Source: an uncultured Planctomycetia bacterium (GTDB lineage Bacteria; Omnitrophota; Gorgyraeia; 1-14-0-20-64-10). From it: DNA of 64,000 nt. Both the position numbers and the translations under genes were made by a program. The stretch spans positions 149,164-213,163 of the forward strand of contig CAYJVR010000001.1 in NCBI GenBank assembly GCA_964373715.1, written 5' to 3'. Below the pieces are notes generated by a model. That model was not told the DNA's origin. It saw only the letters and a list, made by a program, of their open reading frames with translations, and did no database searches. Below are positions 5,448-56,644 of this stretch, piece after piece. Within the stretch, counting starts at the first letter, position 1. Every line of letters begins with the position of its first letter.

Positions 5448-5544
5448 TATGAATGACGGTGAAGATCTCCTCATCTCCGCGTCATTTTTCAAGATTTTGC
5501 TTGACCTCCGTTCTTCCCGCGTGATACAAACCTTCTAAGACAAC

Positions 5545-5720
5545 AGATACCGTGTGAGGGAAGCCTGTCAAAAACAGGCGCGGCCCCGCCACTGTAGTCC
5601 CGCCTCCGCCAAAGATTTCCGGCGGAGATGTTTTCAGCGCAAACAAGCCACTGTCCGGCCGAAAACTTGGATGGGAAGGCGTGCTGAAAGCGGGAAAGCC
5701 AGGAGACCTCGCGGTGTCAG
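5545..5720 (+). promoter_or_regulatory. cobalamin (B12) riboswitch aptamer in the 5' leader of a TonB-dependent receptor gene
   Basis: Reads AGGGAAgcCtGT...GCgGCCCcGCCACTGTA ... GCCACTG ... GGGAAGGC ... AGCCAGGAGACCTcGC. It matches the cobalamin riboswitch core, the B12 box and the 3' GCCACTG element in the correct order. A duplicated cgaggggg near the RBS could sequester the SD. Confidence 0.7.
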
Positions 5721-5838
5721 TATAACCTGCAGTCGCATCGAGTTCCTTCGAGGGGGAGGAACAAGGCTAATTCAGCATTCCCGCCTTCTTTTCCCTCGGG
5801 TTCTCGTCGGATTGCCTTACTCGAGGGGGTTAATAAGG

Positions 5839-23292: not shown

Positions 23293-23363
23293 GCGGGTGT
23301 AGTTCAGTGGTAGAACTGAAGCTTCCCAAGCTTCTAATGGGGGTTCGATTCCCCCCACCCGCT
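23293..23363 (+). tRNA. tRNA-Gly (anticodon CCC)
   Basis: Cloverleaf folded by hand: acceptor GCGGGTG/CACCCGC, D-arm GTTC-AGTGGTA-GAAC, anticodon stem GAAGC/GCTTC with loop TTCCCAA, T-arm GGGGG-TTCGATT-CCCCC. No encoded CCA. Confidence 0.85.
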
Positions 23364-45150: not shown

Positions 45151-45187
45151 AACGTCTACGGTCTTTCCGTGGACGTTTTTCTTTTTT
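45151..45187 (+). terminator. intrinsic-terminator-like hairpin immediately upstream of the response-regulator start
   Basis: AACGTCTACGG-tctttc-CCGTGGACGTT stem with one mismatch, followed by TTTcTTTTTT. Confidence 0.5.
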
Positions 45188-45201
45188 CGGCCTGGTTTAC
45201 G

Positions 45202-46074
45202 CCTATGCCGCCACCTGACGATCTCGACTCCAGGACCAAAAGGGTTCTTGTCGTAGATGACGAGCAGGAGGTGACCTTTGCCCTGCACGCCTATTTTTTA
45301 GGCAAGGGGTATGAGATGCTGACTGCGCTGGACGGCATGCAAGCGATGCGGCTTTTAAGGCAACACCCCGTGGATCTTGTCCTTCTCGATATGAAGATGC
45401 CCGGGGTTAATGGAATCGAGGTCCTAAAGTTCATTCACTCCCATAGCCCGCAGACCAAGGTTATTGTTGTCACCGCTTATGACGATCAATTTCAAGAGAT
45501 GGTGGAGAAGCTGGGAATTGACGGTTTTCTCATCAAGCCGTTTGGTATCGAGGCGCTGACTTCCACCGTGGAAAGGGTTTTAACGGGCAGACATAGCGAG
45601 ACAGCCCCTGTCTCCGATGATGTTTCTGCCATTCCCCGCGGCCCGAAAGCGCGGGCAAAGCTTCTGTTTGTGGAGCCAGCAGAGTACACCTACCAAGTCA
45701 AAGAGGTCTTCTTCCTCGATTCGGAAAAGTGCGGGGGGATTTACAAGGTTGACTGCGCTTATGATGTGTCTGAGGCGCTGAAAAAACTCGAATCCTTCAG
45801 GCCTGATATTTTACTTGTGGATTTGACCATGCTTGGTACCGGGGGAAAGCTGGCGCTCAAGGCAATGGCCTCCGAAGCCAAGCCGAAAGAGCTTGTTATT
45901 CACGGCTCAGGCACGGTGTTGCCCTCTTCCAAGAACGCGCACGTCGAGGATCTTACGCGGCAGGGAGTTAAGGTCGTTTACAACGAGAGCTTTACCAGGG
46001 CGGGGTTGATCCGCTTAGCGGAAGTGATCCGGAAAACGGCGATTGCTCACGGGTTGGTGGAGGTTTCTTCTTGA
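45202..46074 (+). CDS. response regulator with tandem receiver domains (second degenerate)
   Basis: REC1 with DD...D(LVLLDMKMPG)...K pattern. REC2-like fold (ILLVDLTMLG) lacking the full acidic pocket. Confidence 0.7.
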   Translation, partial: PMPPPDDLDSRTKRVLVVDDEQEVTFALHAYFLGKGYEMLTALDGMQAMRLLRQHPVDLVLLDMKMPGVNGIEVLKFIHSHSPQTKVIVVTAYDDQFQEMVEKLGIDGFLIKPFGIEALTSTVERVLTGRHSETAPVSDDVSAIPRGPKARAKLLFVEPAEYTYQVKEVFFLDSEKCGGIYKVDCAYDVSEALKKLESFRPDILLVDLTMLGTGGKLALKAMASEAKPKELVIHGSGTVLPSSKNAHVEDLTRQGVKVVYNESFTRAGLIRLAEVIRKTAIAHGLVEVSS

Positions 46075-48164
46075 TGGGGGTCTTGGCGAAGGGCTTGTTA
46101 GCTGTTGGCCTAGCGAGCCTGGCGGCTGGTTTCTTCGTCTACTCGAAGAACAGGAAGAACCCTCTCACAGCGACTTGGTTCCGGCTTTCTATGGCCACAG
46201 CGGTATGGGCGCTGAGCACCTTTTGTTTGGTGAACGCGCCCTCTTACGGCTGGGCCCTCGTCTTGGCTCGGTTAGCCCAGGCGGTTTTTAGTCTGATTCC
46301 GGTCTTCTTTCTCCAGTTCAGCCTCGCACTGCTCAATGGGTCGGCGCGGGTTCAGGGGAGTTTACTGCGTTACAGCAGGATAGCGGCAGGCGTATTCTTT
46401 CTGCTTGGTGTGACCCCGCTGATTTTTAGCCGCTTGCAGACCGATACCCTCTTTAGGTTTTATCCGATGGCGGGGCCGTTTTACGGTGTTTTTGCCGTAT
46501 GGTTTGTTATTCTCATGCTTGTTTCGCTGAGTATCCTGCTCAATGCCTACCGTCTTCACGCCGGCTACAAGAGGAACCAACTTATCTATGTCATCACGGC
46601 TTCTCTTTTCGGTTTGACGGCTTTCTTCTCATTTATTCCAATGACGTTTGCCATTTCCATACCGCCTTTGGGCCCGCTCCTGCTTGTTTTTTACGCGTTG
46701 ATCACCTATTCGGTCATTCGCTGGCGCTTGATGGATATCTCGATCGTCGTTAAAAACACGCTTATCTACGCCAGCCTTTATTCAATTTTGGTGGGGCTTT
46801 TTGTCGTGGTCGTGGTTTTCTTCGGGCAGCTTTTTTTCTACGGTCCGCAAGCTTTGGATAAGAGGGTTTTGTGGATGTGCGTCGTAGCGCTGAGCATTGT
46901 CACCGCCTTGGTGCGGCCGCTCGATACATGGCTGACGAAGCTGACCGACAAAATGCTGTTCCAGCGGAAATATGAATGGCAGAAAACCCTTAAGGAAGCT
47001 TCCCGAGGGATGGCGAAAGTCACCTCCGTTGAGAGGCTGCTGAGGCTCATGGCTCATTTCATCGGGATGAGAATCCGCGTTTCCCACGTCGGTTTTCTTC
47101 GTCGGGACAGCGGCTATTACACGATGAAGGTCAGCCGGGGGAAAGAGAAGCGGCCCATGGGGCTGACGGTGGATAGGGACAACCCCCTTGTTTTATGGCT
47201 GGAGGAGAAAAAGGAGGTCTTGTCCGATGATGAGGTCGAGTATTGGCTCCGGAACGAAAAGCTTTTCCCTCACAGGACGGTGCTCAGGCGCACCCTTTCC
47301 GAGATTAAAGGGGAGATGGGTTTACTGGGGGCTAAACTGTGCGTGCCTGCTTTCAGCAGGTCGCAGATGCTCGGCTTCTTAATCTTGGGGGAGAAGCTTT
47401 CAGGCGACCCTTACTCGAGGGAGGATATGGATCTCCTTTTGACGCTTGCCAATGAGGGGGCTATCGCGCTTGAGAACGCGCAGCTTTACGAACAGCTGTA
47501 CCAGCGGATGCATGAGATTGAGGATCTTTACCAGCGTGAACACAGGCTCTTCATCCATACAGCCATTGCGTTGGCGGCTGCTGTGGATGCACGGGATCCC
47601 TATACCCACGGTCATACGGAGCGGTGCACCGCTTACGCGCTGACAGTTGCCGAGGAGTTGGGGACCACCCATCCGGAGATGGCAGGGTTTCTTCGGTTTA
47701 AAGAGATGCTGAAGGTTTCAGGGCTACTTCACGACATAGGCAAAATCGGCATACCGGACGACATCCTCCGAAAGAAGGGGAAGCTCACGCCGAAAGAGTT
47801 CAAAAAGATGGAAGAGCACTCCATCATAGGCGCTATTATTCTCCAGCCGATTAAGGGAATGGAGGATGTGGCCAAAGCGGTAAAGGCGCATCACGAACGT
47901 TATGACGGCAGAGGTTATCCGGACGGTTTGAGGGGGACGGAGATTCCGCTTTTGACCCGAGTGATCTCTGTTGCCGATACTTTTGACGCGATAACAACCG
48001 ACAGGCCTTACCGGAAGAGGCTTTCAGATGCGGTTGCCGTGAAAGAAGTGGAGGCCGGGGCCGGAACGCAGTTTGATCCTGTGGTGGTTCAGGCTTTTTT
48101 GAGAGCTCATAAGAAGGGCCTCATCACGATGAGGCCTGTTGAAGCGACCGATATGTTAAGATAG
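46071..48164 (+). CDS. 7TM-sensor GAF HD-GYP phosphodiesterase
   Basis: N-terminal 7 TM helices (7TMR-DISM-like), GAF, and C-terminal HD-GYP (HDIGKIGIPDDILRK...HHERYDGRGYPDGL). Confidence 0.8.
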   Translation: MMGVLAKGLLAVGLASLAAGFFVYSKNRKNPLTATWFRLSMATAVWALSTFCLVNAPSYGWALVLARLAQAVFSLIPVFFLQFSLALLNGSARVQGSLLRYSRIAAGVFFLLGVTPLIFSRLQTDTLFRFYPMAGPFYGVFAVWFVILMLVSLSILLNAYRLHAGYKRNQLIYVITASLFGLTAFFSFIPMTFAISIPPLGPLLLVFYALITYSVIRWRLMDISIVVKNTLIYASLYSILVGLFVVVVVFFGQLFFYGPQALDKRVLWMCVVALSIVTALVRPLDTWLTKLTDKMLFQRKYEWQKTLKEASRGMAKVTSVERLLRLMAHFIGMRIRVSHVGFLRRDSGYYTMKVSRGKEKRPMGLTVDRDNPLVLWLEEKKEVLSDDEVEYWLRNEKLFPHRTVLRRTLSEIKGEMGLLGAKLCVPAFSRSQMLGFLILGEKLSGDPYSREDMDLLLTLANEGAIALENAQLYEQLYQRMHEIEDLYQREHRLFIHTAIALAAAVDARDPYTHGHTERCTAYALTVAEELGTTHPEMAGFLRFKEMLKVSGLLHDIGKIGIPDDILRKKGKLTPKEFKKMEEHSIIGAIILQPIKGMEDVAKAVKAHHERYDGRGYPDGLRGTEIPLLTRVISVADTFDAITTDRPYRKRLSDAVAVKEVEAGAGTQFDPVVVQAFLRAHKKGLITMRPVEATDMLR

Positions 48165-48204
48165 TTGGCAGCTGAGCATTTTTCCCTATCCAGGAGGAAG
48201 AGGA

Positions 48205-48561
48205 ATGACACTCAAAGAACGACGGAAATACATGAGGATCTCCACGGATTTAAAAGCCGAATATTGGGCTAAGGGACCTTCTATGCTGAAGGGCAATGCC
48301 TTGGTGAAGGATTGTTCCCGGGAGGGTTTTGGCGTAGTGCTGCAGGACCCGGTGGCGAAAGGGGAGCATGTGGATTTAACGTTGCGCGTTCCCGGAGACA
48401 ATATTCCGATATTCGCTACCGCGGAAGTGACCTGGTCCGAATTGGATAAGCAGGGGGTGGGCGCAGGGCTTAAGATTCTTTCTATTAAGCCTCTTGATTT
48501 GGCCCGTTTGCTCGATTTTGTTTATTCCCGTTGGCTTGGCGGGATCAGAGAAAAGCTTTAA
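48205..48561 (+). CDS. PilZ-domain protein
   Basis: RRKYMRI...DCSREGFGV PilZ motifs. 118 aa. Confidence 0.7.
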   Translation: MTLKERRKYMRISTDLKAEYWAKGPSMLKGNALVKDCSREGFGVVLQDPVAKGEHVDLTLRVPGDNIPIFATAEVTWSELDKQGVGAGLKILSIKPLDLARLLDFVYSRWLGGIREKL

Positions 48562-48619
48562 AGGAACCAGCCGGATTTCCAGCGGTTTTCTTGTCTAATC
48601 CAAGAGTGCGTATCCTTTC

Positions 48620-49495
48620 TTGATTCCTCTAGTTGTTGTTTTTCTCATTCTTTTTCTTTGGGGTGTTGCGGGGTCTTCCATAGTCGTCTCTCAGCCCCGT
48701 TACAGGGCGTCGACAACACCTTCCGATGTGGGGATCTCGTCCTGGGAGCCGCTGTCTCTTATTACGGAAGATAAGGTCTCGATCTCCGGTTGGCTGATCA
48801 GAAACCCTTTCGCCGAGGGAGTTCTACTTCTCCTGCATGGATTCGGCACTTCAAAAGCCGATCTTTTGGATGTCGCCAGGTCTCTTTATGATTTTGGAAA
48901 GCACCACCTTGTTTTGATTGATTTCCGCGGGCACGGGCATTCCGGCGGCAGATCCTTTTCGTTCGGCCGCAAAGAGGTTTTGGACGTGAAGGCGGTTTTA
49001 ACGACCCTGGCTTCGATGCCGGATTTTCGGGAGCTGCCGGTCGGATGCCTCGGGGTATCCATGGGAGGGGCCATCGGTATCCTTGCGGCGTCCCGTTATC
49101 CCCAGATACGGGCCGTCGTCAGCGATTCTGCTTATGCCGATTTTGGCAAAGCCATTGCGAGGGCCCTGAGTATCACTTATCATGTTCCCCTGTTGATTCT
49201 CGGGCAGATCGTGATTTGGAGCACCGAGGTCCGTTTAGGGTGCAAGATGGCTGTCGTCAGCCCGATGCTGGCAGTTCCCCGGATTGCTCCTCGCAGCGTG
49301 ATGATTATTCACGGGACAAACGATAGGACTGTACCCCATCAGGATGGGGAGATCCTTTTTAAGGTTGCTGGAAATCCAAAAAAACAGTGGATGATTCCCG
49401 GCGCGGAGCATGTTGCCTGTTTCTACAAAGATAGAGTGGAGTACACGCGTATGGTATCGGAGTTCTTTAGAGATGGGTTTCGCGGAACGGCGTAA
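48620..49495 (+). CDS. membrane-anchored alpha/beta-hydrolase
   Basis: N-terminal TM. GVSMGG nucleophile elbow (GxSxG). HG oxyanion region. C-terminal His. Confidence 0.65.
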   Translation: MIPLVVVFLILFLWGVAGSSIVVSQPRYRASTTPSDVGISSWEPLSLITEDKVSISGWLIRNPFAEGVLLLLHGFGTSKADLLDVARSLYDFGKHHLVLIDFRGHGHSGGRSFSFGRKEVLDVKAVLTTLASMPDFRELPVGCLGVSMGGAIGILAASRYPQIRAVVSDSAYADFGKAIARALSITYHVPLLILGQIVIWSTEVRLGCKMAVVSPMLAVPRIAPRSVMIIHGTNDRTVPHQDGEILFKVAGNPKKQWMIPGAEHVACFYKDRVEYTRMVSEFFRDGFRGTA

Positions 49496-49859
49496 ATATC
49501 CCCGCGTTAGCGAGGCTGTCCCGTGCCAGCTGACGGTGGGGGGATACACCCTTGTCGCTGAGACACGGAATATCAGCTGCGGCGGTGCCCTATGCAGGCT
49601 CTCCAGCGTCGTCGCCCCGATGACTCAGATGGAGATCTCTTTCCAGCTTCCCGGGACTATACCCGGTGTTTCCGGCCGGATGATACGGTGTGTGGGGGTT
49701 GTAGTTCGCCAAGAAAAGGAAAAGGTTCTCTCGGCCGGCGATGCCTCCGTGCGTTTCACGACCGCTATCTACTTTTCCGAACTGAAACAGGAGGACCGGC
49801 GGCTCATCGCTGAATTTGTCCTGCAGAGCATGCTCTCCCACGACCGTCGGCGCACCTAA
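49473..49859 (+). CDS. PilZ-domain protein
   Basis: RRKYPRV...NISCGGALC PilZ motifs. Internal ATG after the hydrolase gene preferred. Confidence 0.65.
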   Translation: MGFAERRKYPRVSEAVPCQLTVGGYTLVAETRNISCGGALCRLSSVVAPMTQMEISFQLPGTIPGVSGRMIRCVGVVVRQEKEKVLSAGDASVRFTTAIYFSELKQEDRRLIAEFVLQSMLSHDRRRT

Positions 49860-49885: not shown

Positions 49886-49922
49886 AGCGTACTGCCCTTG
49901 GAGGTAGTACGCTAATTTTTTT
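49886..49922 (+). terminator. Rho-independent terminator after the PilZ gene
   Basis: AGCGTACT ... AGTACGCT 8-9 bp stem followed by AATTTTTTT. Confidence 0.5.
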
Positions 49923-50062
49923 GCGCCGCATCGTTTCACCAACTCCACGTATTCTTTCCCCAGGTTTGGCCAGAGATAGAACATTTTAGACATCCCTTGA
50001 CAAAACAGGCTTTTGTCGGCAACACTTGTAGTAGAGAGATAAGAGCTTGTTTTTTAATGTGT

Positions 50063-50162
50063 TAGTGCTGAAAAGGGCAAACGATTCGAAAGGATCGGGC
50101 GCAATGCTAGAGGTCCTCCCCGCTAAAGTCTAATGGTGGAAGGATAGCTCGGCTGCCAGCAA
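50063..50162 (+). promoter_or_regulatory. c-di-GMP-I (GEMM) riboswitch aptamer
   Basis: Reads AAAAGGGCAAACGAUUCGAAAGGAUCGGGCGCAAUGCUAGAGG ... GGAAGGAUAGCUCGGCUGCC. It aligns motif-for-motif with the Vc2 GEMM-I consensus (GGGCAAACCAUUCGAAAGAGUGGGACGCAAAGCCUCCGG ... GGUAGGUAGCGGGGUUACC). Closing stem GCUG/CAGC. Confidence 0.65.
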
Positions 50163-50177
50163 AAGAAAGGTTTCGCG

Positions 50178-50207
50178 CCCATCCTGTTATTGCAGGATGG
50201 GTTTTTT
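50178..50207 (+). terminator. intrinsic terminator/expression platform downstream of the GEMM aptamer
   Basis: CCCATCCTG-ttattg-CAGGATGGG followed by TTTTTTATTT, 24 nt before the next start codon. Confidence 0.6.
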
Positions 50208-50230
50208 ATTTGTCAGATTTTGGAGAATAG

Positions 50231-50446
50231 ATGGCTGATAAAACCAAACTGTCGATAGAAGAAGCAGCCCGGTGGTTGGGTGTTTCGAGCCGAACCGCTT
50301 ACCGGTTGGCTCAAGCCGGCAGAATTCCTGCCTTCAAGGTAGGGGGACAATGGCGTTTCAGCGAGAAGATGCTCGAGGAGTGGATGGCCGACCAGGTAAC
50401 CATCAAGCGCCTCCAGGTGGAAGAAACGAGGAGGAGATCCGCGTGA
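50231..50446 (+). CDS. excisionase-family (MerR-like) helix-turn-helix DNA-binding protein
   Basis: 71 aa. LSIEEAARWLGVSSRTAYRLAQAGRIPAFKVGGQWRF matches the excisionase-family HTH (TIGR01764-like). Confidence 0.65.
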   Translation: MADKTKLSIEEAARWLGVSSRTAYRLAQAGRIPAFKVGGQWRFSEKMLEEWMADQVTIKRLQVEETRRRSA

Positions 50447-50516: not shown

Positions 50517-52907
50517 GTGAAGGTGAAGGCGAAGTTATTAGCGGGATTCGGGATCATGGCGTGCATCGTCGCCGTAGTTGCCGCACTCAATTTCTATGTT
50601 GCCCACCAGGTCAACAGGCTCAGGGGTGTCGAGCTTCCCATGGAGCAGAACCTCCGTAGGGTAGAGGTCAGTATCTGGGAAGCAATCCATGCGGCCGACT
50701 CCTTTAGGTTCACGGCAGATCCTGCCTATGAGGAGCTCTACTTCAAGCAGTTGGGTGACGTGGATGGGTTTTATCTGAAATATCTGGACTTGATCAGTAC
50801 CTCAGAGGAGAAGCAGTACGCGGAGGAATTCAACCGCTTCTGGGCAGAAGGCAAAGCAGCCGGCGAAAAGATACTTAAGTTCATCCGACAACAGCGGAAA
50901 GCCGAAGAGACTTTTTATGCGGAGATTAATTTTTCCGATGAGGTGATCGACTCCAAGATCCAGGCCAAATTCTCTCTAGAAGACCCACAGCTTTTAGCCA
51001 AGGAACAGACCCTCCGGGAAGTGGAGGTCAGCATCTGGGAGGCAATCCATGCGGCCATGCAGTATACCAGTTTGACCCCAGAGATTCCGGGGTCTGGATC
51101 CCCCCCGAAGACCTACCAGGAGTTCATGGAGAGAAAGTTTAAGGATGTGGAGACCTTTTGGGCTAAGTATAAGACCTATGCTACCTCCCCGGCTGAGCGA
51201 GAAGCGATTAAGGAATTTGAGATGCATTGGCAAGCGGCTGTCCCAAAGGGAAGACAATTGGTCGAGTTGCAGGATAGAATTCAAGCAGAGTTTAGCCTGC
51301 TGTACCAGGCCGCAGAAAAAACCGGTGACGTGATCAATAACAAGATGCAAGCGGTCATTCAAGAAAGGGTAGAACAGCGAAATTCCCAGTCAAGACAAGT
51401 CACTGCGCGGGGAATGGTGCTGGCGATAGGCAGCTTTATCCTGGCAATTTGGATCAGCTTGGGGTTAACCCGTTTGATCACGGTGCCGCTCGGAAATCTG
51501 GCGAATGCCGCGAAGGAGATTGAGCAGGATAATTTTTCGGCTCGGGCTGAGGTGAGCACAAGGGATGAGATCGGGGAGCTGGCGAAGAGTTTTAACCGGA
51601 TGGCTGAGGAGCTGGAAAGATCCAGAGGAGAGATGCTTTTCGCCAAGGCATATGTGGAAAACGTGGTCAACTCGATGGCCGATGCGCTGATTGTGATCGA
51701 TCTTGATGCCCAGATTCAGACCATCAACCAAGCAGCTTGCCAGCTTTTGGGTTACGAGAAGGAAGAGCTTCTGGGGAAAGCCGTAAGTTTCATTGCTGTA
51801 AAAGAGCGCATCTTTAAAGGCACAGGATTGGAGAAACTCACCCGGAAAGGTGTTTTAAAAGAAGTGGAGATGACGTTCACGGCCAAGTCGGGAGAGCGGA
51901 TCCCTGTTTTGGTAACGGGGAGCGTGCTGTTGGGTGAGAAGAAACGCAAGGCCGGAATTGTGATGATGGCGCAAGATATGCGTCAATCCAAAACGGTTGC
52001 GCAGCTTTCCAAACTGCAGATTAAGGACCAGGAAAAGAACCTAGAGTTGGAGCTGAAGAGTCGGGAGCTGGAGGAAAGACGCAGCATCTTAACCGCCCTT
52101 CTGGAAGATGCAAACGCCGCTCGGAAAGAGGTGGAGCGCCGAGAGAAACAACTCAAGGAGACCCAGGCGATGTTGGTCCAGGCAGGGAAGCTGACAGCGC
52201 TTGGCCAACTGGGGGCCGGGGTTGCCCATGAGCTGAATCAGCCGATTGCCGCCATTCTGGGGTTCTCGCAACTTTCCTTAACCCAAATTCCCTCCGATCA
52301 TCTCTTGGCCCCTCATTTAAAGCTCATTGAAGAGCAGAGCAAACGGATGGCCAAGATCGTGGACAACATCCGATCGTTTGTCCGGGATTCTCACGAGAGT
52401 CACGAGGCGATTTCTCTCAATCAGCCGATTGTGGACGCGCTCATGCTGATGACGGTGCAACTGAAAGGCAGGGGGATCGTGGTGGAGACCCGGCTGGATT
52501 CGAATCTTCCGCTGATAGTTGCCGATAGCAACGAGCTCCAGCAGGTGTTCCTGAACCTGTTGACCAACGCGCGGGATGCGGTGATGGAGAAGGGGCCGGG
52601 AGGAAAGATTCAGATATCTACTTTCTCCGATGGAAGCGATTGGGTGGTGGCTAAAGTCAGCGATACAGGGACGGGTATTCGCGAGGAGATTCGAGAGAGG
52701 ATATTTGACCCCTTTTTTACGACTAAGCCGCCGGGGAAAGGGACCGGCCTGGGGCTTGCCATCGTGTCCGGGATCATGGCCAATCACCAAGGGACGATTG
52801 TGGTGGAATCCGTTTCGGGCGAAGGGGCGACGTTTGTTGTTAAGATTCCCGTGGTGAAGCAACAAAAGAGGCAGAACACGAAACAGAAGTTGAGGGCGAC
52901 AGCATGA
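50517..52907 (+). CDS. sensor histidine kinase with duplicated periplasmic helical sensor module, HAMP, PAS, HisKA, HATPase_c
   Basis: GTG start. TM. Two copies of a ~120-aa module ([11 protein letters not shown]...). Second TM and HAMP. PAS ([14 protein letters not shown]). H-box [15 protein letters not shown]-boxes DTGTGI / GTGLGLAI. Confidence 0.85.
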
Positions 52908-52977: not shown

Positions 52978-53355
52978 ATGAGGATTTTGGTGGCGGACGA
53001 TGAACAAGTGATACGGGATCTAATCTTCCAGGTGCTGCGGATGAAGGGGCACGAGATTATACTTGCCACCAACGGAAAGGAGGCGGTGGCGCAGGCGGCC
53101 TCCGATTCCTTCGACGCGATCTTCCTGGATGCGGTGATGCCGGAACTGGATGGGTTTGAGGCCTTCAAGCAGATTCGGTCAAGGGATCCCCATGCGGTGG
53201 TGGTGATCATGACCGGGTTTGCCGTGGAGGAAGGGATACGGGAAGCGATGGTTCTGGGAGCTTTCGACTTTCTGTACAAACCTTTTAACATCGTAGAATT
53301 GATGATGATTCTGGAGAAGATGAAGAAAAGAGAGAGCTTAAAGCCCTTAACGTAG
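52978..53355 (+). CDS. single-domain response regulator (CheY-like receiver)
   Basis: ILVADDE...FLDAVMPELDG...K in the receiver pattern. 125 aa. Confidence 0.8.
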   Translation: MRILVADDEQVIRDLIFQVLRMKGHEIILATNGKEAVAQAASDSFDAIFLDAVMPELDGFEAFKQIRSRDPHAVVVIMTGFAVEEGIREAMVLGAFDFLYKPFNIVELMMILEKMKKRESLKPLT

Positions 53356-53362
53356 AGGACAG

Positions 53363-55816
53363 ATGACAGAGAACAGGGGACAGAAAACAGAGGACAGAAG
53401 CGAGAAGAGCATCCGAGCGATCCAGCAGGAGGGGAAGAAGAAGTTGCGGTCAGCGCGGCAGATCCTTTTGGTCGATGACAACGACGCGCTGCTTCAGCTT
53501 ATGTGCGAATTGGTTGAGCAAATCGGCTGTGAGGGGATCAAAACGGCTTCGGTCTCTGAAGCGATGAAGGTTCTTGAGAAGAAAACCTTTCCACTGGTGG
53601 TCACCGATCTTCGGTTTCCTGCCGGTCAGCCGGATGGGCTGGATCTCCTCAAATGGGTGAAAGAAAGAGCCCCCTCCACGGAGGTGATTCTCATCTCGAG
53701 CTTTCCCTCTCAGGGGGCTGCTGTGGATGCCCTGGAGAGTGGCGCAAGCGATTTTCTCATTTGCCCCTTTCCTTCCAACCAGTATGCCATCGAGGTGATC
53801 CAGCGTGCTTTGAACCGTCAGGCACAGTCCGAAAGCTTGCGGCATATGACCGAAGAGGTCAAACACAGGAACATCGAGCTGGAGATGCTCTACAAGGTTT
53901 CTAATGCTATCGGTTACACCCTCGATTACGAGGTTCTGATGCGCCTGGTTATGGGTTCTTTAACCCAAGCGGTTCCATTTGATTTAGCCGCTTTCCTTCT
54001 CATTGTTCCGGAGAGAACGATGAGCGTCTACCTCAGAGAAGGGATTCCAGATCGCTGTATAGAGCGGTGCAGAAAACAGGTGGTTGAAGCGTTTAGTCTT
54101 GTGGGGGGTGTCTGGCAGGGAGATGAGGGCTGCAAATCGAACGTGACGCAGATTCCTCCGGGTCCCTCCTCAGAAGCCAGCGATACGGTCGGTCATTCCG
54201 AGCAGACCTTTTACAATTGTCCTCTTTTGGTGGGAGATCGCCTGATTGGTATGATTGCCATAAGCTCCATCCATGGCCAGCGGTTTGAAGAGTCCGATGT
54301 GCGGTTTGTATCGACGGCAGCTAACCAGATGGCCGGAGCCATTGAGCGGATTCGCCAGATCATTCAGTCTGAGAAGAGCAAGATGGAGATCATGGTGGAA
54401 AACATGGTAGAAGGGGTAATCATGATCGACCAGAAAAGAGAAGTTGTCGTCATCAACCCCCGGGCAAGGAAAATGCTGGGCTTCGGGACTGAAGAAGTCC
54501 CCTCCTCGAGACGCGTCAAAGACAGGCTCAAGACGCTGGGACTAGATCTTTGCGTGAGGGAATGCGAACAGGAACAGCATATTGTGACGAAGGAATTCGA
54601 CCTTTCCGAGGCGATGGGATCCAAGTGTCTCGCCCGCTGTCAGGCGAACTTGGTGAAGGACGCGGCGGGTAACCTCCTCGGGCTTGCTCTGGTTTTGACC
54701 GATGTGACCCTGCAGAAGGAAATTGACCAGATGAAAACCGAATTTGTTTCCATCGTTTCACACGAACTGCGTACCCCCTTGTCGATCACCAAGGAGGGGA
54801 TTGCTCTTGTGTTGGACGGGGTTCTGGGCGCTTTAAACACGGAACAAAACGAGGTTCTTTCCGCAGCCCAGAACAACATTAATAGATTAGCGCGCCTCAT
54901 CAACGATCTTCTGGATGTTTCCAAGCTGGAGGCTGGCAAGGTTGAGCTCAAAAGGAAGCGAATGAACCTGGAGGATCCCGTTCGAGAGGTGGCTGCGCAG
55001 TTTGCCCCTCAGGTGAAAAAGAAGGGATTAGAACTTCAGATCGACTTTCCCTCAGGGGGGGTGGAGCTTTATGCTGATAGGGATCATTTAATTCAGATTT
55101 TCGTCAACTTGGTGGGGAACGCTCTCAAGTTTACTCCCAGCGGTACCATCCGGGTCTTCGCTCGGGAGAGTCCGGATGGTGTGGAGTGTGTGGTGGCCGA
55201 TACCGGAATCGGAATTTCCAAAGAGGATCTCCCCAAGGTTTTCTCCAAGTTCCAGCAGTTCGGCCGTGTCGCCGGCAGTGGCGCAAAAGGGACGGGTCTG
55301 GGCCTTGTTATCGTCAAACAGATGGTGGAGCTTCACAAGGGAAAGATCCGGGTCGAAAGCATGTTAGGCACAGGAACCACCTTTACGTTTACCTTGCCCA
55401 GATTTACGGCGGAAGAACTGTTTCGGGAGCGAATCTCAGAGCCTCTGAAAAGAGCGCAAGGGTCCAGGGCTCCTTTGTCTTGCCTTTTGTTCGATTTTAA
55501 AGGGTTTGATACCCGATGGGGGAAGCTGGGCAGGGACGAGGCGGCGGGCCGGATGAAAGGTTTGGAAGAGCAAGTCAAGAAACTCCTTCGCAAGAACGCA
55601 GATCTAGTCCTTGGGGAGAACTACACCCTTCTGGTGATCCTGCCGGAGACTCAGCGCCAAGACGGTTTGAAGGTTGCGGAACGGATTTTACAGGTAGTAG
55701 GAAACCAAGGGGCTTTACTGGAAGGCAATCCACCCCCTGCTGAGATAGTTTATCGGTTGGCCACTTTTCCCGAGGATGGTGAGACAGAGGAAAATCTATT
55801 AAGGAGATTGTTGTGA
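53363..55816 (+). CDS. hybrid sensor: N-terminal receiver, GAF, PAS, HisKA, HATPase_c, C-terminal degenerate GGDEF-like domain
   Basis: REC (ILLVDDND...VVTDLRFP). HisKA SIVSHELRTPL. HATPase DTGIGI/GTGLGL. C-terminal ~150 aa LLFDFKGFDTRWGKLGRDEAAGRM...LVLGENYTLLVILPET aligns to GGDEF (GENYT in place of GGDEF). Confidence 0.8.
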   Translation: MTENRGQKTEDRSEKSIRAIQQEGKKKLRSARQILLVDDNDALLQLMCELVEQIGCEGIKTASVSEAMKVLEKKTFPLVVTDLRFPAGQPDGLDLLKWVKERAPSTEVILISSFPSQGAAVDALESGASDFLICPFPSNQYAIEVIQRALNRQAQSESLRHMTEEVKHRNIELEMLYKVSNAIGYTLDYEVLMRLVMGSLTQAVPFDLAAFLLIVPERTMSVYLREGIPDRCIERCRKQVVEAFSLVGGVWQGDEGCKSNVTQIPPGPSSEASDTVGHSEQTFYNCPLLVGDRLIGMIAISSIHGQRFEESDVRFVSTAANQMAGAIERIRQIIQSEKSKMEIMVENMVEGVIMIDQKREVVVINPRARKMLGFGTEEVPSSRRVKDRLKTLGLDLCVRECEQEQHIVTKEFDLSEAMGSKCLARCQANLVKDAAGNLLGLALVLTDVTLQKEIDQMKTEFVSIVSHELRTPLSITKEGIALVLDGVLGALNTEQNEVLSAAQNNINRLARLINDLLDVSKLEAGKVELKRKRMNLEDPVREVAAQFAPQVKKKGLELQIDFPSGGVELYADRDHLIQIFVNLVGNALKFTPSGTIRVFARESPDGVECVVADTGIGISKEDLPKVFSKFQQFGRVAGSGAKGTGLGLVIVKQMVELHKGKIRVESMLGTGTTFTFTLPRFTAEELFRERISEPLKRAQGSRAPLSCLLFDFKGFDTRWGKLGRDEAAGRMKGLEEQVKKLLRKNADLVLGENYTLLVILPETQRQDGLKVAERILQVVGNQGALLEGNPPPAEIVYRLATFPEDGETEENLLRRLL

Positions 55817-56181
55817 AGGTTGTTCTCATCGTAGAGGATGAATCGGAGCAGAGCAAACTTCTCCAGATCCGGCTGGAGGCAAACGGCTTCGGGACGATTA
55901 TTGCCAAAAACGGCCAGGAAGCTTTGAAGGAGGCTGAAAGCGGCAGGCCAGACTTGGTGATCGTGGATCTTCTGCTTCCCGATATGAACGGTTTTGAGGT
56001 TTGTCAGCGGCTGAAAGAGGCTCCCGAAACCCGGCAGATTCCCGTTGTCATGCTCACCGCCTATCCTGTGGAAGATGTCGAGCGCCGGTGTCTAGAGTCG
56101 GGGGCTTCTCTCTGTTTGAGGAAACCCTATGTGGCTTCGGAACTTCTCGCAGAGATCAAACGGTTGCTGAAGAAGGTGTAA
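55813..56181 (+). CDS. single-domain response regulator
   Basis: VLIVEDE...IVDLLLPDMNG...K pattern. Confidence 0.8.
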   Translation: MKVVLIVEDESEQSKLLQIRLEANGFGTIIAKNGQEALKEAESGRPDLVIVDLLLPDMNGFEVCQRLKEAPETRQIPVVMLTAYPVEDVERRCLESGASLCLRKPYVASELLAEIKRLLKKV

Positions 56182-56239: not shown

Positions 56240-56644
56240 ATGCCTGAGAAATGCCGCATTCTGATCGTGGATGACGAACCTGATCTTGTCAGGCTGGTCT
56301 GCTTGCGCCTGGAGGCGTCAGGCTACGAGGTTTTGGTGGCCATGGATGGGGAGGCGGCTTTGGCGAAGGCTCGGGTTGAAAGGCCTGATTTGATCCTCCT
56401 AGACCTGATGCTTCCGAAAATGGATGGCTACCAGGTCTGTCGCCTCCTTAAAAACGACACTCGCACTGCGCCAATCCCTATCGCCATCTTTACAGCCAGA
56501 AGAGGAGAGTACGATGAGGAACTTGGGAAAGAGTGCGGGGCCGACGCCTACATCCGAAAGCCCTTTTGGCCGGAAGAGTTGTTGGAAACGATACGGTTGC
56601 TGCTGTTAAAATCACATGGCTCAAAAGCCGGTTTCTTTCACTAA
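56240..56644 (+). CDS. single-domain response regulator
   Basis: ILIVDDEPD...LLDLMLPKMDG...K pattern. Confidence 0.8.
   Translation: MPEKCRILIVDDEPDLVRLVCLRLEASGYEVLVAMDGEAALAKARVERPDLILLDLMLPKMDGYQVCRLLKNDTRTAPIPIAIFTARRGEYDEELGKECGADAYIRKPFWPEELLETIRLLLLKSHGSKAGFFH

Follow-up and report, generated by a model that had tools for sequence, protein, structure and literature searches.

Does the leader of a small signalling operon in an uncultured bacterium respond to cyclic di-GMP (c-di-GMP), and if so, by what RNA mechanism and in which direction? The question is raised by positions 50,063 to 50,446 of a 64,000-nucleotide stretch of contig CAYJVR010000001.1 from an uncultured Planctomycetia bacterium (the whole stretch is called the window below). 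An initial annotation had placed there a class I c-di-GMP (GEMM-I) riboswitch and an intrinsic terminator, ahead of a gene for a 71-aa helix-turn-helix (HTH) protein of the HTH_17 family and a two-component operon. We find that positions 50066-50161 form a genuine GEMM-I aptamer, whose membership in RF01051 is well supported, and we consider it fairly likely that the leader as a whole is a functional GEMM-I switch, in which an antiterminator and a terminator would compete to turn the HTH_17-led operon off.

We scanned the window with all 4227 Rfam families. RF01051 (c-di-GMP-I) matches positions 50066-50160 of the plus strand with 57.1 bits (gathering score 35 bits, E = 1.6e-8), untruncated over model positions 1-87 of 87, and is the best-scoring family of clan CL00126 at this site; the scan returned no further GEMM match in the 64 kb. 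The covariance model thus bears out the GEMM-I call of the initial annotation, and the motifs quoted there, GGGCAAAC..UUCGAAAGGAUCGGGCGCAAUGC and GGAAGGAUAGCUCGGCUGCC, read as given in the sequence. The anatomy of the aptamer is as follows, each part taken from the Rfam alignment (L numbers denote related loci, described below):

50066..50161, plus strand: GEMM-I aptamer (RF01051, folds, comparison with the L074, L075 and L083 leaders)
50066-70 (UGCUG) with 50157-61 (CAGCA), plus strand: P1 (also from the motif coordinates)
50071-76, plus strand: J1/2, AAAAGG
G50077-C50102 and C50078-G50101, plus strand: 2-bp stem of the first hairpin
AAA and GGC, plus strand: internal loops of the first hairpin
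50082-87 with 50092-97, plus strand: 6-bp stem of the first hairpin, with a GAAA cap at 50088-91
A50103 A50104 U50105, plus strand: inter-hairpin linker
50105-50154, plus strand: second hairpin
G50155 C50156, plus strand: J1/3

The first hairpin is built as in other GEMM-I RNAs, from a 2-bp stem, an internal loop, a 6-bp stem and a GNRA loop, and 100% of its cells are paired in the four sequences that we aligned. Both aptamer hairpins are present in the minimum free energy (MFE) and centroid folds. The junction layout agrees with the architecture published for Gs1761, which has a 6-nt J1/2, a ligand-stacking A as its 1-nt J2/3, and a 2-nt J1/3 (PMC6274999). Its position is 5' regulatory: the aptamer follows the terminator of the preceding gene and precedes, by 70 nt and on the same strand, the start codon of the HTH gene.

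In GEMM-I RNAs the specificity nucleotide sits just 5' of the 2-bp stem and is G20 in Vc2 and A14 in the cyclic GMP-AMP (cGAMP)-type Gs1761 (PMC6140456). Using the Rfam alignment and the published junction description, we mapped the ligand-contact equivalents in the window to G50076 (G20), A50103 (A47) and C50156 (C92). The residue-by-residue Vc2 numbering drew partly on the 3IRW construct; mapping via the published Gs1761 helices gave the same answer. A GEMM-Ib type, specific for 3',3'-cGAMP, was considered and rejected for the window, since it needs an A at the G20/A14 equivalent, where the window has G50076. Because G50076, A50103 and C50156 together form the signature of c-di-GMP and not of cGAMP, we infer from the sequence that the ligand is c-di-GMP.

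The expression platform consists of these elements:

50177..50207, plus strand: intrinsic terminator from a consensus scan, with an 11-bp stem (50177-87 with 50192-202), a UAUU loop and a U-tract
50091..50102, plus strand: upstream strand of a predicted antiterminator, AGGAU, bulged C50096 and GGGCGC, made up of the first hairpin's 3' strand and that of the 2-bp stem
50175..50185, plus strand: downstream strand of the predicted antiterminator, GCGCCCAUCCU, overlapping the 5' arm of the terminator
50222-27 and 50231-50446, plus strand: Shine-Dalgarno sequence GGAGAA and the 71-aa HTH_17 gene (sequence, Pfam, NCBIfam)

A terminator does precede the HTH gene, as had been annotated: its stem (50177-50202) has 11 pairs, 6 of them G-C, and is followed by a U6 tract that ends 23 nt before the ATG at 50231. 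It begins 15 nt past P1 and has no nucleotide in common with the aptamer, and it stands alongside both aptamer hairpins in the MFE and centroid folds of the full-length RNA. When we folded the transcript at successive nascent lengths, the 11-bp, singly bulged pairing of 50091-50102 with 50175-50185 was part of the MFE structure of every transcript ending between 50180 and 50195. For ends at 50187-50192, this antiterminator fold reaches -41.5 kcal/mol, compared with -32.6 kcal/mol for an enforced aptamer fold. At full length the aptamer and terminator together reach -51.0 kcal/mol (unconstrained MFE -53.5 kcal/mol) and the antiterminator fold -41.5 kcal/mol. The terminated fold thus wins once the transcript is complete, and regulation must therefore be kinetic, not thermodynamic.

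In the class I riboswitch Cd1, which acts as an OFF switch, aptamer and terminator coexist and compete with an antiterminator, whereas in the ON-acting pilM riboswitch aptamer and terminator are mutually exclusive (PMC9262584). Because the window has the coexisting layout of Cd1, we predict that it is probably a Cd1-like OFF switch for c-di-GMP, so that high c-di-GMP would lower operon expression. Transcription would start near 50032, with the TTGACA of 49997 upstream of it. In the ligand-free state, the AGGAU-C-GGGCGC strand (50091-50102) would leave the aptamer as the polymerase moves past about position 50185, and would pair with GCGCCCAUCCU (50175-50185); the terminator would be blocked and the operon transcribed. 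With c-di-GMP bound, G50076 would contact one guanine and C50156 the other, with A50103 stacked between them. The ligand-bound aptamer would then retain 50091-50102, the hairpin at 50177-50202 would form with its U-tract, and transcription would end 23 nt ahead of the start codon, yielding less HTH protein and less of the phosphorelay.

To place the leader among its relatives, we compared operons headed by related HTH genes. A single-sequence search with the HTH protein returned only itself; a profile built from the two closest HTH proteins returned 63 proteins. Twelve lineages were sampled, namely the contigs of ten relatives from the profile search, the window and L003; the relatives used are 57-63% identical to the window protein. 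In 12 of 12 a small HTH gene lies at or near the head of signalling genes, and a GEMM-I aptamer with a terminator forms the leader in three: the window, L074/75 (from a groundwater metagenome) and L083. RF01051 matches directly upstream of the HTH gene in L074 (3836-3935, 49.7 bits), L075 (1783-1882, 50.8 bits) and L083 (1250-1323, 49.0 bits), and each aptamer is followed by a non-overlapping terminator and U-tract (GCCCATCATTTCAGATGGGCTTTTTT in L074/75, AGCCCATCTTTTCGAAGATGGGCTTTTTT in L083). The terminator 5' arm GCCCAUC is common to all three lineages. Rfam scans of the other nine gave no GEMM-I match, and none was found at the 65 HTH_17 loci of a genome-contig scan (L003 at 63% identity, the others at 36-55%), so the association is not general to HTH_17; as judged from these loci, the GEMM-I leader is recurrent within this HTH subfamily. 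Neither the HTH gene nor a GEMM element was found at five metagenome loci whose kinase sensor domain is 34-41% identical to that of the window.

Structure conservation was assessed in an alignment of four aptamers from three lineages (window, L074, L075 and L083), scored on the Rfam-derived structure, a sample of low statistical power. Across the leader, two further loci (L001, L002) match the window at 100% identity and therefore add nothing on covariation. In the alignment 91.3% of cells are paired, compared with 21-50% when partners are slid. The 10-pair main helix (helix 4) of the second hairpin is paired in 90% of cells, and three of its pairs show compensatory changes such as G-C/A-U to C-G/C-G. 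The first hairpin varies in its 5' strand, at three positions and in a wobble-compatible manner, whereas its 3' strand GGAUCG and the GGCGC after it do not vary; it is this constant strand that can pair with the terminator arm. In L083 a manual pairing of CGAAAGGAU-C-GGGC with GCCCAUCUUUUCG gives a 13-bp antiterminator, which is the MFE structure before the 3' arm is made (-74.2 compared with -69.0 kcal/mol). The full-length optimal folds of L075 and L083 combine the terminator with the first aptamer hairpin. By these folding models, the OFF switch is supported in two lineages, the window and L083; the pairing in L075 is not favoured.

The sister leaders differ from the window in other respects. 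L083 carries an A at the G20 equivalent (GAAAAGAGCAAAC, compared with GAAAAGGGCAAAC in the window), a natural G20A signature of cGAMP-type or bispecific GEMM-Ib RNAs, and it has a short second hairpin with a UUCG cap and a structured spacer of about 90 nt before its terminator. In L003, positions 1317-1357 resemble window positions 50163-50202 in their 5' half (AGACAAGGTTTGTCACGCCCGTCCTGTT compared with AGAAAGGTTTCGCGCCCATCCTGTT; score 28, equalled in 1 of 1000 shuffles), with no U-tract. The hairpin in L003 may be left over from an aptamer-terminator cassette that was lost, or may have a second function. In L056 (2003-2086), a Binatia metagenome-assembled genome (MAG), we noted a match to RF03169, the c-di-GMP-II-GAG variant (44.3 bits, threshold 40), about 1.9 kb upstream of a distant HTH_17 gene on the same strand.

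Several observations weigh against a functional c-di-GMP OFF switch. The linker reads AAU where AAA is near-invariant (320 of 322 GEMM RNAs, with two exceptions accepted in the original description; PMC1950547), and U50105 faces U50154 as a mismatch in the Rfam alignment; judged from this alignment, the linker is the single near-invariant GEMM-I feature that is missing from the window aptamer. The canonical 11-nt GAAA receptor is not recognisable in the second hairpin, which has CUCC/AAG at the receptor site, and affinity could therefore be lower. At full length the aptamer-terminator fold (-51 to -55 kcal/mol) is well below the antiterminator fold (-41.5 to -44 kcal/mol). The antiterminator duplex itself (-21.1 kcal/mol) is stronger than the mean of shuffles (-16.2, standard deviation 2.6), but 108 of 2000 dinucleotide-shuffled aptamers equal it, and the shuffle statistics for this complementarity alone are suggestive only. 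The equivalent pairing is disfavoured in L075 (-46.3 compared with -53.2 kcal/mol), where the terminator arm pairs instead with a G-rich strand that lies 5' of the aptamer core. The covariation is between three divergent lineages only, and a generic sigma-70 scan found no complete promoter at the operon leader. The altered linker, an exception found in just two of 322 RNAs, and the missing receptor could mean that the aptamer senses another ligand (3',3'-cGAMP or an unknown dinucleotide) or has lost tight binding, and the A at the G20 equivalent of L083 indicates that specificity varies within the operon family. We nevertheless regard this as improbable: G50076 is a G and not the A that marks cGAMP-type GEMM-Ib RNAs, the intercalating A and the Watson-Crick C are both kept, and RF01051 scores 22 bits over its gathering threshold. 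About half of the accepted GEMM RNAs have no tetraloop receptor (PMC1950547), the L074/75 leaders have the canonical AAA in a core otherwise near-identical to that of the window (AAA is also the linker of L083), and the neighbouring genes are c-di-GMP genes (PilZ, HD-GYP).

The same aptamer and ligand could also act in the opposite direction, with c-di-GMP promoting read-through, as Weinberg et al. proposed for many GEMM RNAs: in 78 of 322 the terminator competes with the second hairpin, and these were predicted to act as ON switches (PMC1950547). The full-length optimum is terminated even without ligand, so a default-off, ligand-on device is conceivable if an unseen interaction exists. We hold this to be unlikely, if somewhat less so than a change of ligand, because in the window, and likewise in L075 and L083, terminator and aptamer share no nucleotide and occur together in the MFE fold. 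The ligand would have no obvious route to stop the terminator from forming, and the non-overlapping layout is the one described for the OFF-acting Cd1. The hairpin at 50177-50202 might, instead, be mainly a conserved DNA palindrome (an operator for HTH_17) or a constitutive attenuator, with little contribution from the riboswitch. L003, which has no aptamer, does carry a similar hairpin and the same upstream AAGGTTT before its HTH gene, and the stem is conserved in sequence and not in structure alone, which is unusual for plain terminators. Such a role is very hard to credit, given that the arm GCCCAUC of the three GEMM leaders exactly complements the invariant aptamer strand GAU(C)GGGC, which explains its conservation, and that a U6 tract comes after the hairpin in the window, L074/75 and L083, while L003 has none. 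The OFF switch outlined above remains our preferred reading.

What would the switch control? The first gene product matches PF12728 (HTH_17) with 66.4 bits (cut-off 27) and TIGR01764 ("excisionase family") with 58.3 bits (cut-off 28.8), and the identical 71-aa protein occurs on five contigs; exact copies of the kinase sequence, too, are present on a few contigs. An AlphaFold2 model (mean predicted local distance difference test score 82) shows a winged HTH and a long C-terminal helix (residues 45-70); its best structural matches are BldC, the MerR-family protein NmlR, RdfS, Pukovnik Xis and RacA. The sequence-profile matches of the HTH subfamily in the PDB are BldC chains only (6AMK, 6AMA; E ~5e-5). 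BldC, at 68 residues, is a MerR-like regulator that has no effector domain (PMC5859096). The NCBIfam BldC model NF033787 scores 19.2 bits, below its cut-off of 77, and the likeness to BldC is one of fold and superfamily only.

We considered a true excisionase, that is, a recombination directionality factor, and rejected it: no integrase or recombinase domain was found among the genes from 36 to 64 kb of the window, and the neighbours are housekeeping and signalling genes. The "excisionase-family" label of the initial annotation therefore holds for the domain family and not for the function, BldC being among the closest solved relatives; the protein is probably a small MerR/Xis/BldC-like transcriptional regulator. 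No publication that pairs a c-di-GMP riboswitch with an excisionase turned up in a literature search. A long-arm tRNA gene lies 250-700 nt upstream of many of the distant HTH_17 genes (36-55% identical; L008, L017-L022, L025-L029, L039 and others). That is the setting to be expected of true excisionases in integrated elements, and it contrasts with that of the HTH gene in the window.

Behind the HTH gene, the kinase, receivers and hybrid kinase described earlier are all present (Pfam/NCBIfam):

50517-52907, plus strand: kinase of 796 aa, HAMP-PAS-HisKA-HATPase with a four-helix-bundle-like sensor
52978-53355, plus strand: receiver
53363-55816, plus strand: hybrid kinase of 817 aa, receiver-GAF-PAS-HisKA-HATPase
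55813-56181, plus strand: receiver
56240-56644, plus strand: receiver

No terminator was found by scanning between the HTH gene and the kinase gene, and the HTH stop codon overlaps the start of the next gene in several relatives, which supports co-transcription. The Pfam/NCBIfam matches include no DNA-binding output domain in the receiver-bearing response regulators of the operon. The C-terminal 130 residues of the hybrid kinase (685-814) are weakly GGDEF-like (23.2 bits, just under the cut-off of 23.8), with GENYT replacing GGDEF; this degenerate tail could serve as a receptor or scaffold domain related to c-di-GMP. Downstream of the operon lie alanine dehydrogenase, NUDIX and PolX genes. A contig with an 88%-identical kinase (P0003) has the same order of HTH_17 (71 aa), kinase, receiver, hybrid kinase and receiver, with about 380 nt upstream of its HTH gene. 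The named kinase homologs belong to Ca. Scalindua and further Planctomycetota; the HTH locus nearest to that of the window, L003, is from a Planctomycetales MAG.

Upstream of the riboswitch, a further cluster is found:

45169-46074, plus strand: receiver protein
46071-48164, plus strand: 7TM-GAF-HD-GYP-type protein
48205-48561, plus strand: PilZ gene (Pfam match taken from a contig with the identical protein)
49410-49859, plus strand: second PilZ gene

An alpha/beta hydrolase gene on the plus strand separates the two PilZ genes. By its domain content, the 45169-49859 cluster makes up, with the riboswitch operon, a c-di-GMP signalling neighbourhood. Elsewhere in the window, the other gathering-level Rfam matches are a cobalamin riboswitch aptamer at 5533-5730 of the plus strand (RF00174, 64 bits, gathering score 31.5) and a tRNA at 23293-23363.

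The genes that follow HTH_17 in the related operons are:

L003 (Planctomycetales MAG): kinase, two receivers
L073: PAS protein, PAS-kinase, four receivers
L076: PAS-kinase with a weak GGDEF tail, receiver
L077/78: PAS-kinase, three receivers, MshEN-type ATPase
L081/82: PilJ-kinase
L084 and L086: receiver
L079/80: receiver, the HTH gene lying inside a receiver/MshEN-ATPase cluster
L074/75: receiver
L083 and L085: CheR

T2SS-E ATPases with an MshEN domain flank three of these loci (L077 5332-6443, L078 4661-5808, L079 786-2549). MshEN is a c-di-GMP-binding domain, and these neighbours hint at a link of HTH_17-led operons to pilus or secretion control.

The preceding PilZ gene (49410-49859) has its own terminator at 49886-49913. 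Because this ends the preceding unit, the aptamer lies in a leader, and a transcription unit, of its own. Two sequence features mark its promoter region:

49997..50002, plus strand: candidate -35 hexamer TTGACA, within the conserved block 49995-50032
49999..50017, unstranded: palindrome GACAAAA-CAGGC-TTTTGTC, overlapping the -35 hexamer

A weak -10 element would lie near 50020-50025 and the transcription start near 50032. The block CTTGACAAAACAGGCTTTTGTCGGCAACACTTGTAGT (49995-50032) aligns with the region that holds the promoter of the homologous L077 operon, at a score of 33 that 0 of 500 shuffles reached, and TTTAGACATCCCTTGACA (49984-50002) with L003 (3 of 500 shuffles). Positions 49954-49979 align with L076 (3 of 500), and a block alignment of the promoter region was likewise obtained with L084 (4 of 500). 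Promoter-region blocks are thus conserved among HTH_17-led operons of divergent genomes, at about 2150-2190 in L077, at about 1275-1292 in L003, and in L076 and L084. L077/78 have the same promoter block with a leader of only ~20 nt, whereas ~200 nt with the aptamer and terminator separate block and start codon in the window. Related inverted repeats, GACAA...TTGTC, occur at the L077/78 promoters and just past the promoter in L003. The palindrome at 49999-50017 is a candidate operator, possibly and speculatively for the HTH_17 protein itself.

For the GEMM-I class the window is ordinary biology and leaves the knowledge of these riboswitches unchanged. The 2007 description found the motif to be common in certain Planctomycetes orders, in a 5' regulatory position in 297 of 309 cases, with terminators in many copies and with histidine-kinase, PAS, HAMP, HD-GYP and GGDEF genes repeatedly downstream (PMC1950547). 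In C. difficile, the cmrRST signal-transduction operon is under the control of a class II c-di-GMP riboswitch (PMC8844915). The initial annotation's remark that the arrangement is not commonly described was thus overstated. Somewhat new, as far as the sampled loci indicate, is that a small HTH_17 subfamily recurrently heads signalling operons, with a GEMM-I leader in three of the 12 lineages. One could go further and speculate, though this is unlikely, that a phosphorelay whose four response regulators are all receiver-only has its missing DNA-binding output in the BldC-like HTH_17 protein, which would autoregulate via the promoter palindrome. Such operons would form a widespread small-HTH-led class, into which a GEMM cassette was inserted between promoter and first gene (for c-di-GMP in the window and L074/75, possibly for cGAMP in L083).

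In a lineage that has been little studied, the locus offers a clear and testable case in which c-di-GMP would act at the RNA level on a two-component cascade, and it draws notice to a conserved ~70-aa BldC/Xis-like subfamily at the head of kinase, receiver or CheR operons. Together the sister leaders make up a small natural series (G20 or A20, AAA or AAU, with or without the distal second hairpin) usable for studies of specificity and of the expression platform.

Comparison with known systems places the window within familiar designs. Vc2 of Vibrio cholerae (VC1722), the structural reference, shares with it the G20, A47 and C92 equivalents, the three-helix junction and the GAAA loop on the first hairpin. 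The gene behind Vc2 is tfoX-like, and the window differs from it in the AAU linker, with its U-U mismatch at the base of the second hairpin, and in lacking a recognisable receptor. The GEMM-Ib riboswitches of Geobacter (Gs1761, pilM) have the same fold and junction layout, but carry A at position 20 and are often ON switches with overlapping terminators, whereas the window has G50076 and a non-overlapping terminator. Cd1 (Cdi-1-3, upstream of the flgB operon in Clostridioides difficile) resembles the window in having a class I aptamer, a separate, coexisting terminator and a competing antiterminator, with ligand turning expression OFF (PMC9262584, PMC8844915). It controls flagellar genes in another phylum, in place of the window's HTH-kinase-receiver operon; the antiterminator of the window uses the 3' strand of the first hairpin, and its direction is predicted.

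The HTH protein finds its best solved relative in BldC of Streptomyces (6AMA, 6AMK), like it a ~70-aa MerR-like winged helix without an effector domain (profile E = 5e-5; template-modelling score ~0.6-0.8, at the level of the fold). The two are ~27-31% identical over the aligned core, and the window protein differs in its longer C-terminal helix and its phosphorelay-operon context. Cdi-2-2, the class II riboswitch of cmrRST in C. difficile, is like the window a c-di-GMP riboswitch that gates a two-component operon, with two response regulators and a sensor kinase. It differs in its GEMM-II aptamer, in being an ON switch followed by an invertible DNA switch, and in having no small HTH first gene, and it provides the RNA-level precedent for second-messenger control of a two-component system.

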